NCBI GenBank assembly: GCA_963717525.1
Contig: OY970343.1
Span: forward strand, 256,001-320,000
From: an uncultured Methanoregulaceae archaeon
Lineage (GTDB): Archaea; Halobacteriota; Methanomicrobia; Methanomicrobiales; Methanospirillaceae
Length of the DNA stretch: 64,000 bases
Direction of reading: 5' to 3'
Shown here: one piece after another, positions 31,143 to 38,196 of the stretch
Numbering within the stretch: position 1 is the stretch's first letter
How the letters are laid out: the number at the start of each line of letters is the position of its first letter
Notes under the pieces: generated by a model
Told to the model about the DNA's origin: nothing
Database searches by the model: none
Seen by the model: only the letters and a program-made list of their open reading frames with translations
Program-made: the position numbers and the translations under genes

Positions 31143-31197
31143 AGAGGGGCAAACGCACGGGTGACAGGCTTTGCACTTAATGTCACCTTTTGACCAG

Positions 31198-31230
31198 ACT
31201 TTAGGTGCAGACGCAAGACTTTAGGTGCAA
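31198..31230 (+). repeat. Left subterminal repeats actttaggtgca x2 (20-bp period)
   Basis: Copies start at 31198 and 31218; the motif resembles the TIR core. Confidence 0.85.
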
Positions 31231-31248
31231 GAATGAAATCCTTGCACT

Positions 31249-31425
31249 ATGGTAATAATCACCAAAGAAGGTGTTGATGGTAAGGTTTGTTCAACCTGCC
31301 ATGTTTGGAAACCACTATCAGAGTTCCCAACAGATCCGACTCATGGACCCAAACAAGGATTTAGACATTGTAGTTGTAGAGCATGTCATAGAGAAAAAAG
31401 CAGAGCACAGAGGCAAAACAAGTAA
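31249..31425 (+). CDS. 58-aa zinc-finger microprotein (transposon cargo)
   Basis: Manual translation MVIITKEGVDGKVCSTCHVWKPLSEFPTDPTHGPKQGFRHCSCRACHREKSRAQRQNK; CxxC-KPLSEF-...CxxC. Confidence 0.7.
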   Translation: MVIITKEGVDGKVCSTCHVWKPLSEFPTDPTHGPKQGFRHCSCRACHREKSRAQRQNK

Positions 31426-31428
31426 GGA

Positions 31429-32637
31429 TTATTTGTGAAGGAAACTAGGTTCGATTCCGTTTTCAAACATTTCGTGAATCACGACCGTCAAATTATATGC
31501 GATGATCTTTGCCAATAATTCGTTTATCTGCGCGATTTGATTTTTTGACTTGAGAGTTTCCCCGAACTTCCGCTTTATCGCCGCATTGGTGGATTCCACA
31601 TTACTGCGCTTGTGGTAGTGCTCCATGAACTCCTCGCGGTTCAACTGGAAGAAGTAATACATCTTGTTCCATAATGGAGAACCCCTTGTTTTGCACCTAG
31701 CATGTTTCTTGAATGGGATATACGCAACGCCGCCAACAGCGCCTGCCGCTTCAAAATTGTCACGCGATGAATACGCACGGTCGGCGGAAATTTCACAAAT
31801 GTTAAAGTTCTTTGAGAGATCTTCCACGAGCGGTTTAAAATGTGGTGAGTCGTTGTCGTTAGTAGTGGATATTTCTATACCGGTAACGATGTTGGTCTTA
31901 ACACCGGTTGCCATGTGTGCCTTTAACCACCGGTGTTCTTTTTTCTGACCGTGCTTCATTCCACAGTATGCGCCAAATGTTGTTGTCCTGAATCCAGTAG
32001 AATCTATTGCAAAATCAGTTTCAAGTCCGGCAACCGGTAACGCAGACAATGTAACCAATTCATGAAGTATCGGGGTTATTTCAGCATCGTTGAAGAGTTT
32101 AGATGGCGCGTTAAAGTGCGGCGCGTGGTCAATCTGTTGCTTATCTACTGCGTTTTGAAACAAGGTGTGCGCTCTGCGGCTGGACAACTGCGAATACACT
32201 TTTTGTATCGCACAGAAAAGGGATTCGCTAAGTGGCAGGCGCGGCCTTCCCATAGCCTGCTCTGGTTCAGGAATGGCTTTTACCAAGTCCTTTAACAGAG
32301 CGTCAAACAGCCTAATCTCTTCTGTCTGCGCGGCGTTGTACGCACTCCATGCCTGAGCATAGGTTAGGTGCATCTTCTCAGTAACCGTGCCTTTCGGTGT
32401 GTCTCTCTGTACTTCAAGATAAAAGCGGGTTGCCAGTATGTGTTTACACGGTAGACCACGCTTAACGAAGTCGGGGCAGGTGCAGGTCATTCCCTTATCG
32501 GTAGCTTTTACCTCGTAGACTCCGTGGCCGGTTTGGGATTTTACGGTATATGAGTGGTCGTCTACTTTCTTGATCTGCCCATTCTTTTCTACGATTGCTT
32601 TTCCTCTTTCTTCCCTTGTGGTTGTTAGTTGCTCCAT
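31429..32637 (-). CDS. Transposase: N-terminal SWIM zinc finger + DDE domain
   Basis: CTCPDF...PCKH SWIM; IDSTG, ADRAY and YHKRSNVE..NAAIKR (Y-2-R-3-E-6-K) catalytic motifs; GAGGT upstream of the ATG. Confidence 0.93.
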   Translation of the reverse strand: MEQLTTTREERGKAIVEKNGQIKKVDDHSYTVKSQTGHGVYEVKATDKGMTCTCPDFVKRGLPCKHILATRFYLEVQRDTPKGTVTEKMHLTYAQAWSAYNAAQTEEIRLFDALLKDLVKAIPEPEQAMGRPRLPLSESLFCAIQKVYSQLSSRRAHTLFQNAVDKQQIDHAPHFNAPSKLFNDAEITPILHELVTLSALPVAGLETDFAIDSTGFRTTTFGAYCGMKHGQKKEHRWLKAHMATGVKTNIVTGIEISTTNDNDSPHFKPLVEDLSKNFNICEISADRAYSSRDNFEAAGAVGGVAYIPFKKHARCKTRGSPLWNKMYYFFQLNREEFMEHYHKRSNVESTNAAIKRKFGETLKSKNQIAQINELLAKIIAYNLTVVIHEMFENGIEPSFLHK

Positions 32638-32641
32638 TTTA

Positions 32642-32725
32642 TTTACCTCTTTATTTACCAATAATATTTATGCCGTCAGACTACATAAACTTATTGGTAA
32701 ATAAAATGGTAAATTAAAAGGTAAG
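32642..32725. promoter_or_regulatory. Divergent promoter/operator region with a 15-bp inverted repeat and 12-bp-phased GGTAAA boxes
   Basis: tttatttaccaataa (32650-32664) / ttattggtaaataaa (32691-32705); TTTACC at 32642 and 32654; GGTAA at 32696, 32708 and 32720. Confidence 0.6.
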
Positions 32726-32761
32726 AAAAAGTATAAATAAAAAGGCACCAGAATGGTAAAT

Positions 32762-32944
32762 ATGCCCAGAAATTCAAAGGCAGATGAATCTATGTTAAAC
32801 CGAGCAACAAGCAAAGGTGGATCTTTACGAACCACAATACCGGCTTTTATTGTATCCTCATATGGATTGAAAGAAGGTGGTAAAATACGCTGGGTACTTG
32901 AAAACGGAAAAATTGTTGTTGAACCACAACATCCTGAAAAGTAA
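32762..32944 (+). CDS. AbrB/MazE/SpoVT-family DNA-binding protein
   Basis: GGSLRTTIPAFIVSSYGLKEGGKIRW...KIVV swapped-hairpin signature; divergent from the transposase. Confidence 0.85.
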   Translation: MPRNSKADESMLNRATSKGGSLRTTIPAFIVSSYGLKEGGKIRWVLENGKIVVEPQHPEK

Positions 32945-33045
32945 ATATTAAGGTAAATAATGTGCCAATAGAAAGATTTAAGATCCCTGAGTCTATACAT
33001 ACATATGGATGCCTAGGTTCGCTGGGCTCTACTGAAGAAAATTAA

Positions 33046-33118
33046 CGGGCACGGCGGGGATCGAACCCGCACCAGCAAGATTAGCAGTCTCGTACACTGT
33101 CCATTATGCTACGTGCCC
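33046..33118 (-). tRNA. Non-canonical tRNA, anticodon GCT (Ser) but short variable loop and Arg-type body
   Basis: GGGCACG-TA-GCAT-AATGGACA-GTGT-A-CGAGA-CTGCTAA-TCTTG-CTGGT-GCGGG-TTCGATC-CCCGC-CGTGCCC-G (73 nt, complete cloverleaf). Confidence 0.85.
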
Positions 33119-33127
33119 ACAGTGGTT

Positions 33128-33201
33128 TGGGGCGTGTGGTGGGAATCGAACCCGCAGTCCGGCTTTACAAGAGGAGGACCCCGACCTTCGGGACACACGC
33201 C
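33128..33201 (-). tRNA. Atypical tRNA-like RNA, anticodon TGT, encoded CCA (possibly a pseudo-tRNA)
   Basis: G-GCGTGTG-T-CCCG-AAGGT-CGGG-G-TCCTCCT-CTTGTAA-AGCCGGA-CT-GCGGG-TTCGATT-CCCAC-CACACGC-C-CCA. Confidence 0.6.
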
Positions 33202-33249
33202 ACTAATTACTTGTCCATTTGGGACCACCTCGCCTCTTCTACATAGGGC

Positions 33250-34029
33250 TTATTCATCAAATTCAACACCCTTGCGTTTGAGATCCTTTATCATCTTCTT
33301 TACAAGACTCTCTGCGAATTTTGCAGTAAGATCATCAGTAACCACCACGACATGTCCCCTATACTCGACTTTTCCCGGGTCGGGGGCTTGCTCTTCAACC
33401 GCATGTGTTTGCAGAGGTGCTGCCGTAGTTCCCTCATTCCCGTTCCCTAATGCATGTTGGCTACTATTGTCTGGTTGTGTATTTTGTGTGGGGGCAGTGT
33501 GCGCAGGCTCCACGGTAAACGTACTTGGTATATGAAGCGTGAGCTTGCGAACAAACGGTTGCCTAGAGGAATAAGGCGGATTTTTTGTAATACATTGGAT
33601 ATCGGCATTATATGCTGACCAGAGATTATCCAAGGAGTCGGTGTCAATATTAATGAGTGATGGGATTGACCTTACTGTCTTATCGAACAGTGCCTTATCG
33701 GGGGTTTTGCCGATGGTGGCAATTAATTGTTTCCACAACGGGGATCTGTTTACCGCAGCCTCTATAGCTGAAGATCGATGAGGGCCGTCTGATAGGATCG
33801 CTTTTCCCCGATCCGTTAACACATAGGTTCCGTTTTTTGTCTGCTGAATAAACCCATAGAGTTCCATATCCCGCAATTTATCGCGGGCACTTGTGATCTT
33901 TATTTTTGTTGTCTCCATGAATTTATCACGAGTGAGACCGGCGTTGAACCCCTCGCTGATTTCCCTAATTGTATCTGCACAAATCCCGACTCGTGTATAT
34001 ATTATGGGGGCGTCCCCGTACCTGTCCAT
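33250..34029 (-). CDS. Hypothetical protein with N-terminal winged-helix-like domain (transposon cargo)
   Basis: ARDKLRDMELYGFIQ...YVLTDRGKAIL wHTH wing pattern; low-complexity linker; short C-terminal helical domain. Confidence 0.7.
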   Translation of the reverse strand: MDRYGDAPIIYTRVGICADTIREISEGFNAGLTRDKFMETTKIKITSARDKLRDMELYGFIQQTKNGTYVLTDRGKAILSDGPHRSSAIEAAVNRSPLWKQLIATIGKTPDKALFDKTVRSIPSLINIDTDSLDNLWSAYNADIQCITKNPPYSSRQPFVRKLTLHIPSTFTVEPAHTAPTQNTQPDNSSQHALGNGNEGTTAAPLQTHAVEEQAPDPGKVEYRGHVVVVTDDLTAKFAESLVKKMIKDLKRKGVEFDE

Positions 34030-34152
34030 ATGATCAAATCCTTGTGATCAATTGGTATGCTGTTTGGGAATATAGCGCTTTGGGTTGGTGTGTGTTACGT
34101 GGCGCAGTGTGAAAGTGAAAATGTGGTGTGCATATCATTTTTGGATGGCTAT

Positions 34153-34185
34153 ACTTTAGGTGCAAGTTTCATACTTTGGGTGCAA
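34153..34185 (+). repeat. Right subterminal repeats acttt(a/g)ggtgcaa x2 (20-bp period)
   Basis: Copies start at 34153 and 34173, immediately inside the right TIR. Confidence 0.85.
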
Positions 34186-34262
34186 ATGGGGGTTTAAGTG
34201 CAAAGCCCGGGTGACAACAACCTTTATGCACAAGGTCGTGCCTCAACTACTTTGATACGCAC

Positions 34263-35357: not shown

Positions 35358-36410
35358 TTACGGTTTATTTTTGGGTTCCGGGCGGGATAAGAGTGTGTTG
35401 ATATCAAAGGGCGGCCTGACAACACCCTGTTCGGTGATGATTGCGCTGACAAGTTTCATGGGGGTCGCATCGAACGCGTAGTTCACTACCGGGACACCAT
35501 CAGGGATCAGGATCCGGTTTCCCACGATCGCGAGCTCATCGCGCCCCCGTTCCTCGATTGTAACCTCGTGCTCTGTCCGGGTGGCATCGAATGTGGAGAG
35601 CGGGGCTGCCACATAGAACGGGATGCTGTGGTGGCGGGCGCAGACAGCGTGCATGTAGGTGCCGATCTTGTTGAAGACGGCATCTCTGGTGATCCGGTCA
35701 GCGCCGACGATCACGGCGTCGATTTTTCCGGTGCGCATGAGGTGCGCTGCCGTGGAGTCGGTGATGACCGTGACATCGATCCCGTCGCGGGCGAGCTCCC
35801 ACGCAGTGAGCCGGGCGCCCTGGAGGAGCGGGCGGGTCTCGCACGCTATCACACTGACCTTTTTCCCCTCTTCCACGGCCGACCGGATCACGCCAAGCGC
35901 CGTCCCCCACGAGGAGCAGGCGAGCGCACCCGCGTTACAGTGGGTGAGCACGGTGCACCGGTCCGGGAGGAGGGTTGCCCCGTTCTCCCCTATGGCATGG
36001 CAGCAGCGGGTATCCTCATCCGCGATTGCACGTGCCTCATCAAGTGCGGTAGTTTTGGCAGAGGTTACATCGGTTTCAACCAGAAACCGGGCAAGCACCC
36101 GGTCGACCCCCCAGCTCAGGTTGACAGCGGTCGGCCTGCTCTCCCGGATGCGCCCGGCTTCGTGCTGCACGGCACGGGAAAACTCCCCGAACGATCGTCC
36201 GGTACAGGTAAATGCAGCAAGGGCGACCCCGAACCCCCCGGCAACGCCGAGTACCGGGGCCCCCCGGATCTCCAGCCTCTGGATCGCCGCAATGAGCCGG
36301 TCGACGCTCGTGCACCCCGCGATGGCATACTCGGTGGGAAGCAGCGTCTGGTCGATGTACCGGATGCCGCAGAGCGACTCGTCCCACCAGAGCGTTAACG
36401 TATCCTTCAC
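35358..36410 (-). CDS. mtnA: S-methyl-5-thioribose-1-phosphate isomerase (eIF-2B family)
   Basis: IDQTLLP, IRGAP.LG, SRPTAVNL, LTHCNAGALA, ETRPLLQGARLTAWEL, NKIGTY; probable GTG start at 36410. Confidence 0.9.
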   Translation of the reverse strand: MKDTLTLWWDESLCGIRYIDQTLLPTEYAIAGCTSVDRLIAAIQRLEIRGAPVLGVAGGFGVALAAFTCTGRSFGEFSRAVQHEAGRIRESRPTAVNLSWGVDRVLARFLVETDVTSAKTTALDEARAIADEDTRCCHAIGENGATLLPDRCTVLTHCNAGALACSSWGTALGVIRSAVEEGKKVSVIACETRPLLQGARLTAWELARDGIDVTVITDSTAAHLMRTGKIDAVIVGADRITRDAVFNKIGTYMHAVCARHHSIPFYVAAPLSTFDATRTEHEVTIEERGRDELAIVGNRILIPDGVPVVNYAFDATPMKLVSAIITEQGVVRPPFDINTLLSRPEPKNKP

Positions 36411-37709
36411 CGGGATCGCGCCCTTGGCTCCCTTTTTATTCTTTGACCCCGCGAATGCCCGCATCGCGGCTGCTCCTCCCGAGGCAACGCTGTCGGGGAT
36501 GTCTCTGGGCGAGACCGCGGCACCGGCAACAAAGATCCCCGGCCGGATCGTTCCTGTTGTGTCCAATGCATCGTGCACCGACCGGATGAATCCGGTCTCT
36601 TCAATGGGGAGGCCAAGTTTTCCCGCGAGTGCCGCAGTCGCGTCCGTTGGCTGTATGCCGACCGAGAGCACCACAAGGCCCGGGCGCAGGGTCTCAACTT
36701 CCCCGGTCTCCGTGTTCTCTACCCGGAACTGCATGCCGGTCCCGTTTTTGTCTGCCTGAACATCGGAGGGTATCCCCCTCATGAACCGGACGCCAACATT
36801 CTTTGCCCGCTCGTAGTATTCCTCGTATCCCTTGCCGTAGGCACGGACGTCCATGTAGAAGATCGTAACCGCGATTGCCGGGTACTTTTCTTTGATGAGC
36901 ATCGCGTTCTTTATCGCCTGCATGCAGCAGACACAGGAACACCAGGGCCGGCAGAGCGATGTGTCACGCGAACCGACGCACTGGATAAAGACGACGCTCT
37001 CCGGCTCTTTTCCGTCACTCAGGCGACCGATCTTTCCTCCGGTTGGCCCGCTTGCGTTGATCATCCGTTCCAGTTCGAGGCTCGTGACTACATCGGGGAA
37101 TTTCAGGTACCCGAGCGGGCTCTTTTTCCGGGCATCGAAGACCTCATATCCGGTAGCGATAATGATGGCTGAGGCCTCGATAACGGTCTCCTTTTCCGTA
37201 TCCTCGTGCAGGATCGCCTGGGGCCCGCAGGCATCGTAACAGAGCCCGCATTCGATGCAGTGTTCCGCGTCTTTTACCACCCGGTCGGGGACCGCCTGCT
37301 GGTGGGGTTTATAGATCGCTTTCCTGACCCCGACCCCGGCATCGAACCGGTTGTAGACCTCGACCGGGCAGATCTGGATGCAGTCACCACAACCGGTGCA
37401 CGCCACCATATCGATGTAACGCGGGTGTTCGCGGACGGTAACCCGGAAGTGCCCTGCGTCGCCCTCAACGCGTTCCACCTCGGACAGGGTGTGGATCCGG
37501 ATATTTTCGTGCCGCTGGACATCCACCATCTTGGGGGAGAGGATGCACATGGAACAGTCGTTTGTGGGAAACGTCTTGTCGAGCTGTGCCATGTGGCCTC
37601 CGATGGTGGGCTCCCGCTCGATCAGGTGGACGACGACGCCGTGGTTTGCGAGATCGAGCGCGGCTTGGATCCCGGAGACGCCGGCCCCGATGACGACCAC
37701 ATCACCCAT
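36407..37709 (-). CDS. hdrA: Heterodisulfide reductase subunit A-like flavoprotein (short form)
   Basis: VIGAGVSG, GGHMAQLDKTFPTNDCSMCILSP, two ferredoxin motifs, FIQCVGSRD, CS.VCCM, PRDIPDSV; reads in frame into mtnA in this sequence. Confidence 0.9.
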
Positions 37710-38196
37710 GGGCGTATTCCCCGGCAAGCCTGACGTAGGACTGGGCATTCTGGACAATGTGTTCACGCTGGGCCGGGGTGGTTTCTTTGAGCACCTTTCC
37801 GGGCACACCGAGCACGACCGAGCCGGGCGGTACCTTCATGCCTTCTGTCACGACCGCTCCTGCACCAATGAGGGAGTCCTCCCCTACGACAGCACCGTTC
37901 AGCACGATCGCACCCATGCCGACCAGCACCCGGTCCCGGATCGTGCAGCCGTGGAGGATCGCACCGTGCCCCACAGACACGTCGCACCCCAGCGTGGTCG
38001 GGAACCCGGCGCTGGTATGGACGACGCAGTTGTCCTGGACATTCGACCGGTCGCCAATGGCAATCCGGTCCTTGTCTGCCCGGATCACCGCCCCAAACCA
38101 GATGCCGATATCCTTTCCCAAGGTAACCCTGCCGATCACCGTTGCATTGGGAGCGCACCAGAGTGGTGTGCCTGCGATCTTCCCGTCCATATCCAT
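37702..38196 (-). CDS. Gamma-carbonic anhydrase-family hexapeptide protein
   Basis: IWFGAVIRAD, SNVQDNCVVH, VGHGAILHGC. Confidence 0.92.
   Translation of the reverse strand: MDMDGKIAGTPLWCAPNATVIGRVTLGKDIGIWFGAVIRADKDRIAIGDRSNVQDNCVVHTSAGFPTTLGCDVSVGHGAILHGCTIRDRVLVGMGAIVLNGAVVGEDSLIGAGAVVTEGMKVPPGSVVLGVPGKVLKETTPAQREHIVQNAQSYVRLAGEYAHG

Follow-up and report, generated by a model that had tools for sequence, protein, structure and literature searches.

A tRNA gene in the archaeal DNA analysed here (the window, the whole stretch of 64,000 nucleotides), termed tRNA2, is best read as cargo of a transporter insertion sequence, in which it would be one member of a cassette. Comparisons within the host tRNA set and with metagenome sequences support an arginine-type body carrying a serine anticodon. 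Our leading, though tentative, interpretation is that tRNA2 is part of a regulated cassette of miscoding tRNAs, which would cause general Ser-to-Arg errors at AGC/AGU codons. Features of the element are collected in Table 1.

Table 1. Features of the tRNA-bearing transposon, with positions in the window.
Feature	Position	Strand	Evidence or remark
9-bp target-site duplication, left copy	31158..31166	.	sequence
Terminal inverted repeat, 14 bp	31167..31180	+	sub-terminal repeats inside
58-aa His-Me finger-like passenger ORF	31249..31425	+	PF18275 E 8e-5, below curated cut-off
SWIM-zinc-finger DDE transposase, IS5-like	31429..32661	-	PF01609 E 3e-23, PF04434
AbrB/MazE-like 63-aa protein	32753..32944	+	PF04014 E 7e-8; divergent from transposase
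tRNA2	33046..33118	-	Arg-type 7/5 body, Ser anticodon GCU; ARAGORN, Rfam, sequence
tRNA1	33128..33201	-	His-type body, Thr anticodon UGU; ARAGORN, anatomy from sequence
SD-like motif, hairpin and mini-ORF	33207..33231	-	sequence; cassette comparison
259-aa winged-helix protein	33250..34029	-	profile and structure searches
Terminal inverted repeat, 14 bp	34194..34207	-	perfect match to other end
9-bp target-site duplication, right copy	34208..34216	.	sequence

ARAGORN reports tRNA2 as a 73-nt Ser (GCU) gene on the minus strand (33118-33046), and Rfam model RF00005 matches it with 63.3 bits (cut-off 29, E 2e-11). The acceptor (7/7), anticodon (5/5) and T (5/5) stems are fully paired, and the 4-bp D stem includes two G-U pairs. 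The D loop is AAUGGACA, giving A20; the anticodon loop reads CU-GCU-AA, the variable loop has 5 nt, A15/U48 and discriminator G73 are both present, CCA is not encoded, and a U-rich tract comes after the gene. The first-pass annotation had drawn this cloverleaf from the letters (73 nt, CU-GCU-AA, 5-nt variable loop, A20, G73, A15/U48), and the sequence, ARAGORN and Rfam all give the same one; it had missed that tRNA2 is the second gene of a bicistron lying inside a transposon. The minimum-energy fold of tRNA2 differs from the cloverleaf (z -2.8), which is common in unmodified tRNAs and was given no evidential weight.

A base-call error at G34 (window base 33085), which had been named as a check on the unusual anticodon, was looked for in contigs of four runs from three studies (X3, X10, X11 and X12, where X3 is a possible source of the assembly and X12 is a bog metagenome from another study). 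All four span tRNA2 with zero other letters, G34 is unchanged throughout, and a base-call or assembly error is therefore ruled out; the read support consists of contigs rather than raw reads. None of the RNA runs contained more than a 0.05 share of the words of the stretch (X19 and X20 at 0.05). The resemblance to the host tRNA-Arg(CCU) noted earlier holds for the named motifs but not for the gene as a whole, which agrees at only 49/73 positions; as this is the best match among the other 46 ARAGORN genes of the host, a recent copy of a host tRNA is ruled out. Close homologues of tRNA2 were found neither in 60 relatives or IMG/VR, nor in 227 family genomes (where G156 has only tRNA1 and the leader), nor among the metagenome matches listed. 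The host is archaeal, as indicated by a Rfam match to the euryarchaeal eL15 leader in its DNA, and its gene content makes it a probable methanogen.

The claim of an Arg-type body with a Ser anticodon agrees with several sequence tests (host set, D-arm motif scan, A/G73). The combination of A20, C35 and U/G36 occurs only in the five tRNA-Arg genes and tRNA2 among the 47 host genes found by ARAGORN with its intron option off. With the anticodon left free, the D-arm motif of tRNA2 matched at least 119 metagenome loci (at least 91 distinct), every listed one with an Arg anticodon; the 91 listed distinct matches comprised UCU 43, CCG 25, CCU 21 and ACG 2, and at most 52/73 of their positions equal those of tRNA2. 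Among phage sequences a cyanophage tRNA-Arg matches best (75%, E 7e-6). tRNA2 is thus far from any ordinary tRNA seen (49/73 in the host, at most 52/73 among listed metagenome tRNAs).

In the available text of PMC9976931, bacterial Arg identity is given as A20, C35, U/G36 and A/G73, with the archaeal entry blank among experimentally characterized elements, whereas Ser identity lies mainly in the long variable arm, with contributions from G73, G30-C40 and G1-C72 in Methanosarcina. tRNA2 has the whole Arg set (as defined for bacteria), apart from an anticodon, GCU, that is not of Arg type (NCG, UCU, CCU). It lacks the long arm of canonical tRNA-Ser, which all four host tRNA-Ser genes have, and carries G73, G1-C72 and G30-C40, all three archaeal Ser determinants. 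Besides a normal long-arm tRNA-Ser(GCU), the host has three further tRNA-Ser and five tRNA-Arg genes. Its ArgRS has an N-terminal D-loop-binding domain and is nearest to that of P. horikoshii, one of the three enzymes (with those of E. coli and T. thermophilus) for which A20 dependence is stated in the accessible part of PMC8975779. The Tyr-x-Asn motif aligns and the FGDY-like motif is altered, and these motifs may map to A20 contacts in the host enzyme. The host SerRS is of standard type with an arm-binding coiled coil.

The tRNA pair sits in an IS5-like transposon of 3,041 bp (31167-34207), an island of 44.7% GC in a genome of 54.5% GC, where the order is winged-helix gene, mini-ORF, tRNA1 and tRNA2, then AbrB and transposase. 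We take the element to be a transporter insertion sequence close to the IS5 family, with IS903-like ends and 9-bp duplication pattern. It shares with such sequences a DDE transposase, inverted ends, a target duplication and passengers that vary among relatives, and differs from them in its tRNA bicistron passenger, its N-terminal SWIM finger and a transposase score just below the NCBIfam IS5 cut-off (NF033579, 137.2 bits, cut-off 140; PF01609 is above its cut-off). No partner toxin ORF was seen beside the AbrB/MazE-like gene in the ORF list, and none of the element's four ORFs matched synthetase families. Relatives of the transposon occur in 14/107 genomes of the genus with different passengers, and no cargo tRNAs lie near relatives of its transposase in 22 loci or 9 regions (only host Ser, Pro and Ile genes). 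Archaeal promoters lie outside the scope of the sigma-70 promoter scan.

Contigs of X10 contain the joints 31254-32970 and 33251-34171 at a depth of about 18.5 (5-7 elsewhere), and X11 contains the joint 31254-32970; the sides of these joints span just 28-30 letters, and no internal repeat accounting for them was found in the element. The joints point to putative shorter forms without the transposase (in X10 also without the winged-helix gene) in which both tRNAs are kept, and the short form would measure 407 bp if both X10 joints share one molecule. Elsewhere, related transposons with other cargo (L018:1124 in G114 and L027:893 in G025) share an insertion site that lies about 110 bp upstream of the host tRNA-Ser(GCU), and another (G121, L012) directly follows the UbiA-family gene that the window's element follows too; these shared sites suggest a target preference. 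Two AbrB-plus-SWIM-domain pairs (G000:C1:1836009-1836633 and 2073871-2074456) have neither a DDE match nor the element's ends. Separately, an 816-aa ORF on the minus strand (window 35358-37808) seemingly joins two enzyme-like parts, which we take from their motifs to be heterodisulfide-reductase-A-like and methylthioribose-phosphate-isomerase-like; it is either a true fusion or an assembly frameshift.

tRNA1, called Thr(UGU) by ARAGORN, ends 9 nt upstream of tRNA2 and has a G-1:C73 His-type acceptor with encoded CCA. Its D arm is shortened (4-bp stem, 5-nt loop) and its anticodon arm extended, with a 2x2 pyrimidine internal loop; Rfam did not match it at gathering score. A homologue with anticodon CGU is present in G156, and the tRNA1 pattern had no match in IMG/VR. 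Upstream, an SD-like GAGGTG (33231-33226), complementary to the host 16S 3' end (GGATCACCTCCT), precedes a mini-ORF encoding Met-Asp-Lys-stop (33218-33207); a 4-bp hairpin spans the start codon, and the stop ends 5 nt ahead of the G-1 of tRNA1. A Met-X-X-stop mini-ORF lies between the winged-helix gene and the first tRNA in 6/7 archaeal cassettes; five of these mini-ORFs follow an SD-like motif that is complementary to the 16S end of the host, that of G438 overlaps the stop codon, and codons 2-3 read DK, GK, GA, GS, GF and SD. A comparable motif stands ahead of 1/94 bacterial and viral RCU genes and 0/109 ordinary Arg genes.

The model of the winged-helix protein (pLDDT 77) has an N-terminal DNA-binding-type domain (1-155), a disordered linker and a small C-terminal domain (220-252). 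For residues 5-149 the best structural match, among BrxA/FokI-type DNA-recognition domains, is BrxA (7zge; Z 8.2, rmsd 3.4, 134 aligned, 8% identity), a weak match with a Z that is commonplace according to the tool; unlike BrxA, the protein has no BREX genes beside it in the element. With Foldseek no hit reached E <= 0.001, PADLOC gave no BrxA match, Pfam, NCBIfam and PADLOC hold no curated family for it, and the Atlas returned unnamed clusters only. The family has 236 representatives at 50% identity. Homologues were absent from viral contigs and present in 5/400 other genomes of the class, plus G438 from a draw of 390 in the phylum; the first five share 26-39% identity with the window's protein.

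The genes behind these archaeal homologues differ. In G156 a G-1:C73 gene with CGU is followed by a Gly-type gene whose ACC loop has 6 nt and, beyond it, by a DDE transposase; G004 has a long-arm gene of Ser type (G73) with UAU, together with a Gly-type gene whose CCCC loop has 8 nt; G016 has a long-arm UAU gene cut by the contig end; G393 a Ser-type 5' half with UAU; and G438 a long-arm G73 gene with UAA followed by AbrB and SWIM transposase in the window's order. G074 retains a hairpin remnant only. Body types were assigned by eye against the host tRNA set and the determinants in the available part of PMC9976931. Four of the seven archaeal loci, the window's included, hence have complete irregular tRNA genes, two have partial ones (contig end; half gene) and one a remnant, and no cognate body/anticodon pair with a normal 7-nt loop was found across the seven cassettes. 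Conservation of the anticodon in homologous elements had been proposed as a check, and GCU is not kept, the others carrying CGU, ACC, UAU, CCCC and UAA. The conserved property of the cassettes, as judged from these assignments, appears to be body/anticodon mismatch and not Ser-to-Arg, and the variation of the anticodon makes a specific Ser-to-Arg purpose unlikely. At one bacterial locus (L128), a distant winged-helix homologue (probability 89.7%) adjoins a GCU gene.

A narrow pattern combining an Arg-type D loop, a short arm and GCU matched 16 viral and 71 GTDB loci over many phyla, representing 78 distinct genes. At least 4/5 anticodon-stem pairs are present in 72/78; a full acceptor is present in 42/78, with A73 in 24, G73 in 16 and C73 in 2, and the other 36/78 retain the elbow and anticodon arm. 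In viral contigs the same Arg-type short-arm pattern gave 16 loci for GCU and 22 for ACU (14 distinct); the four NGA anticodons together had 2 loci, and AAG/AGG/AUG had 1. Where Arg bodies were found with non-Arg anticodons, these are thus the ones keeping C35 and U36, and for this reason the "uncharged decoy" raised by the first-pass annotation would fit tRNA2 less well than a charged state. At 12/74 GCU loci (those with enough flank) an IS1-like transposase on the same strand follows downstream within 1.3 kb, against 0/69 ordinary Arg genes (Fisher P 3e-4, with sets from different collections and kin that are not independent). From the other side, 7/80 viral IS1-like transposase loci have tRNA-like genes just upstream, mostly irregular, and 73/80 have none. 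Further neighbours of GCU genes are integrases, restriction genes and toxin-antitoxin-like genes. Two GCU genes (L062, L066) belong to ordinary Pro-Arg-His clusters, and for these a point change or an error is equally likely. A one-mismatch pattern run class-wide (401 genomes) listed mostly ordinary Arg genes, and 1/10 examined genomes with three matches had ACU.

Several individual loci are recorded here in their own right. An ordinary chromosomal tRNA-Arg(CCU)-type gene bearing ACU occurs in G071 (L387, G071:C11:359-400, minus strand), an 85%-complete genome in which no CCU gene matched the pattern; the ACU gene is either an assembly error or a real change. A third tRNA-Cys(GCA) in G000 (C1:156252-156324, minus strand) is unlike the other two, with G73 instead of U73 and an imperfect T stem, and is possibly another mismatched tRNA. 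Among L043-L151 (e.g. L086, L096, L102, L125, L131) are many Arg-body GCU/ACU genes in which the D, anticodon and T arms remain while the acceptor 3' strand is replaced, often with GAAA or GAAU at the end; several of the ACU genes have an anticodon stem with a pyrimidine internal loop in common. On viral contigs, odd tRNAs directly upstream of IS1-like transposases (L184, L185, L189, L209, L227) have UUA, AUA or GUA on long arms, AGU, or distorted loops. An HTH gene stands head-to-head with an Arg-body GCU gene at L071, L077, L106, L117 and L129, four of which add a 125-137-aa partner that is weakly RelE/Gp49-like. In an Elusimicrobia bin, L104 and L105 are identical Arg-body GCU genes separated by 858 bp, and another odd tRNA-like gene lies close by.

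The mechanism we tentatively favour would begin with a single transcript from a promoter-like stretch upstream of the winged-helix gene, whose product is the putative repressor of the cassette. While the mini-ORF is occupied by a ribosome, the 5' end of tRNA1 would be covered, which would tie tRNA maturation to the state of translation. Matured tRNA2 would be arginylated by the host ArgRS and, as arginyl-tRNA2, compete with the resident tRNA-Ser(GCU) at AGC/AGU, which make up 17.8 per 1000 host codons (about 1.8%; AGC 12.3 and AGA 3.9 per 1000), giving statistical Ser-to-Arg errors to which tRNA1 possibly adds Thr-to-His errors. The outcome would be general proteome damage, as from a conditional, toxin-like growth-arrest or stress effector, with no particular recoded protein. 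Such a product would explain the different body/anticodon pairs of the other cassettes. Bodies whose synthetases ignore the anticodon wholly or partly (Ser arm, His G-1, Arg 34) fit selection for charged-but-wrong adaptors, as do resized anticodon loops of the kind found in frameshift suppressors. Arg identity, anticodon selectivity, the recurring cassette with its mini-ORF, the precedents of allo-tRNAs and tRNA-ProX, and the retention of the tRNA pair in the indicated short form all argue for a miscoding effector. Poisoning of AT-rich invaders through rare codons is rejected for GCU, since AGC stands at 12.3 per 1000 host codons. A more specific version, which we consider possible but doubtful, is a mobile toxin-antitoxin-like or defence system, in which the winged-helix repressor holds the cassette, the mini-ORF senses translation and gates maturation, and the tRNAs poison the proteome through Ser-to-Arg, Thr-to-His, Ile- or Leu-to-Ser and frameshifting Gly events.

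Several observations count against the miscoding effector. In the available text of PMC5389517, G-1/Thr-anticodon tRNAs took up His yet failed to deliver it at ACC, and six UAU allo-tRNAs gave no suppression; types such as these occur as tRNA1 here. Many members cannot be active adaptors, given that 36/78 GCU genes lack a full acceptor and two of the seven archaeal cassettes are broken. The short form would lack the presumed repressor, a loss that toxic cargo should not tolerate unless its promoter is also lost or repression may act in trans. Further points are the Ser determinants G73, G1-C72 and G30-C40 in tRNA2, the blank archaeal Arg determinants in the part of PMC9976931 available, the altered FGDY-like motif of the host ArgRS and the near-absence of the mini-ORF ahead of bacterial RCU genes (1/94).

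Some of these points lend themselves to another account, in which the genes specify charged or synthetase-bound RNAs that do not decode. They would titrate synthetases, elongation factor or anticodon nucleases as decoys or sponges, or provide transcript processing or stability signals upstream of the transposase. We regard this as conceivable but rather unlikely. This account accords with G-1/Thr-anticodon tRNA1s being His-charged yet unused in translation (PMC5389517, available text), with the 6-nt and 8-nt anticodon loops in homologous slots and the distorted D and anticodon arms of tRNA1, with the placement of Arg-body GCU genes just upstream of IS1-like transposases (12/74 vs 0/69 ordinary Arg), and with the 36/78 GCU genes that keep elbow and anticodon arm after losing the acceptor. 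A harmless cognate anticodon would serve a decoy or processing signal equally, yet no archaeal cassette gene has one, and the stems and loop of tRNA2 are fully canonical. Cargo tRNAs are absent from 73/80 IS1-like loci and from 9/9 regions around relatives of the element's transposase, so that the tRNA is not needed for transposition.

It seems improbable that tRNA2 is instead a passenger now silent or in decay, derived from a foreign tRNA-Arg(UCU/CCU) that the transposon caught and whose wobble base has drifted for want of expression or maturation. UCU, CCU and GCG are each one substitution from GCU, no close homologue with GCU was found in relatives, family genomes, IMG/VR or the metagenome matches listed, two archaeal cassettes are broken, and the chromosomal-type Arg(CCU) gene with ACU in G071 indicates that such changes or errors occur. 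Drift, however, should also strike positions 35 and 36 and the stems, whereas ACG position-35 neighbours were found at 1 locus and ACU at 22, and the stems of tRNA2 are intact although at most 52/73 positions match ordinary tRNAs (host and metagenome matches listed); order, mini-ORF and mismatch also recur at 26-39% winged-helix identity. An adaptor that respects the code, delivering Arg at AGA/AGG through extended wobble or G34 editing or being serylated despite its short arm, is very unlikely. Extended wobble of G34 is known in some mitochondria, AGA codons are rare (3.9 per 1000 in the host), and G73, G1-C72 and G30-C40 are Ser elements. The host nevertheless already has five tRNA-Arg and four long-arm tRNA-Ser genes, serine identity lies mainly in the long arm (PMC9976931, available text), and the unrelated anticodons of other cassettes mean that no single codon is served. 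We give almost no credence to a private or genome-wide code change in which the proteins of the element or host need AGY as Arg, which would account for an Arg-type tRNA adjoining the transposase gene. The "recoding" of the first-pass annotation fails in this sense, as AGY codons align to Ser and not Arg: in 13 tRNA-bearing IS1-like transposases 0/41 AGY codons at conserved columns face Arg and 25 face Ser, in the element's transposase 4/5 face Ser and 0 Arg, and in host genes aligned to relatives AGY faces Ser in 113/156 cases and Arg in 4, while AGR faces Ser in 7/114. With AGY away from Arg columns and the resident long-arm tRNA-Ser(GCU) intact, AGY-to-Arg reassignment is rejected.

The closest known relatives of a miscoding cassette are the irregular tRNA polycistrons of Mukai et al. 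(PMC5389517), described in the text available as lying near toxin-antitoxin and transposon genes and ascribed to Acidobacteria. Their G-1 His-type tRNA1s with Thr anticodons were charged by E. coli HisRS but gave no His at ACC, some of their allo-tRNAs put Ser at Leu codons and killed E. coli on induction, and six UAU allo-tRNAs gave no suppression; a later review (PMC7609411, available in part) repeats these findings. Likenesses to that account include tandem irregular tRNAs with a first gene of G-1 His type bearing a Thr anticodon (theirs UGU, GGU, CGU), long-arm Ser-type bodies with UAU or UAA in G004, G016, G393 and G438, and the vicinity of a transposon, the element here enclosing the pair and an AbrB/MazE-like gene with no protein toxin identified. 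Whereas those polycistrons, in the available text, come mostly from short metatranscriptome contigs, the present element is archaeal and complete, with ends, target duplication, winged-helix gene and mini-ORF, and tRNA2 is a 7/5 Arg-type gene rather than an 8/4 or 9/3 allo-tRNA. Among the 14 of 16 GCU-loop rows and the single ACU row accessible in their supplement, none is a canonical 7/5 Arg-body gene; closest to one is an ACU 'pseudo?' tRNA2 whose D loop has 64 nt.

According to the accessible text of PMC10404621, tRNA-ProX of Streptomyces and Kitasatospora mistranslates, is toxic and adjoins its own ProRS isoform, ProRSx. Like tRNA-ProX, tRNA2 joins the body of one amino acid to the anticodon of another beside a normal decoding set and is predicted to mistranslate statistically; unlike it, the tRNAs here come without a synthetase in the element, have several body types and lie in mobile DNA. 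CreT, a class of haloarchaeal RNA toxins that need tandem rare codons and are repressed by a CRISPR-derived RNA (PMC8501985, available text), likewise combines an archaeal SD, AUG and mini-ORF with an adjoining structured RNA, acts on tRNA supply and is under transcriptional repression (here presumed). The present cassette differs in having no tandem rare codons, a mini-ORF that precedes tRNA genes and a protein as presumed repressor. The literature searched, with most subscription papers outside its coverage, contained no report of an archaeal cassette or of Arg-body GCU tRNAs.

Overall, the mismatched tRNA cassette looks like a possible switchable device for garbling protein synthesis. Few bacterial groups are known to have natural missense tRNAs, and no genetic unit, regulator or function has so far been defined for the irregular polycistrons of Mukai et al. 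The 3-kb element shows where such a unit begins and ends and adds a candidate regulator and a leader that is conserved; at six homologous archaeal loci body and anticodon are swapped, and one small construct would make the question of toxins, decoys or junk directly testable. The finding also exposes a recurring annotation error, with Arg-body genes labelled tRNA-Ser(GCU/ACU), of which a single narrow pattern returned 78 distinct GCU sequences. Arg-body GCU/ACU tRNAs, should they prove active, would be ready-made Ser-to-Arg tools. Should the defence-type reading be true, the cassette would be the first natural missense-tRNA system in archaea within the literature searched, and the Arg-body GCU/ACU tRNAs would form a widespread class that is now annotated as tRNA-Ser.
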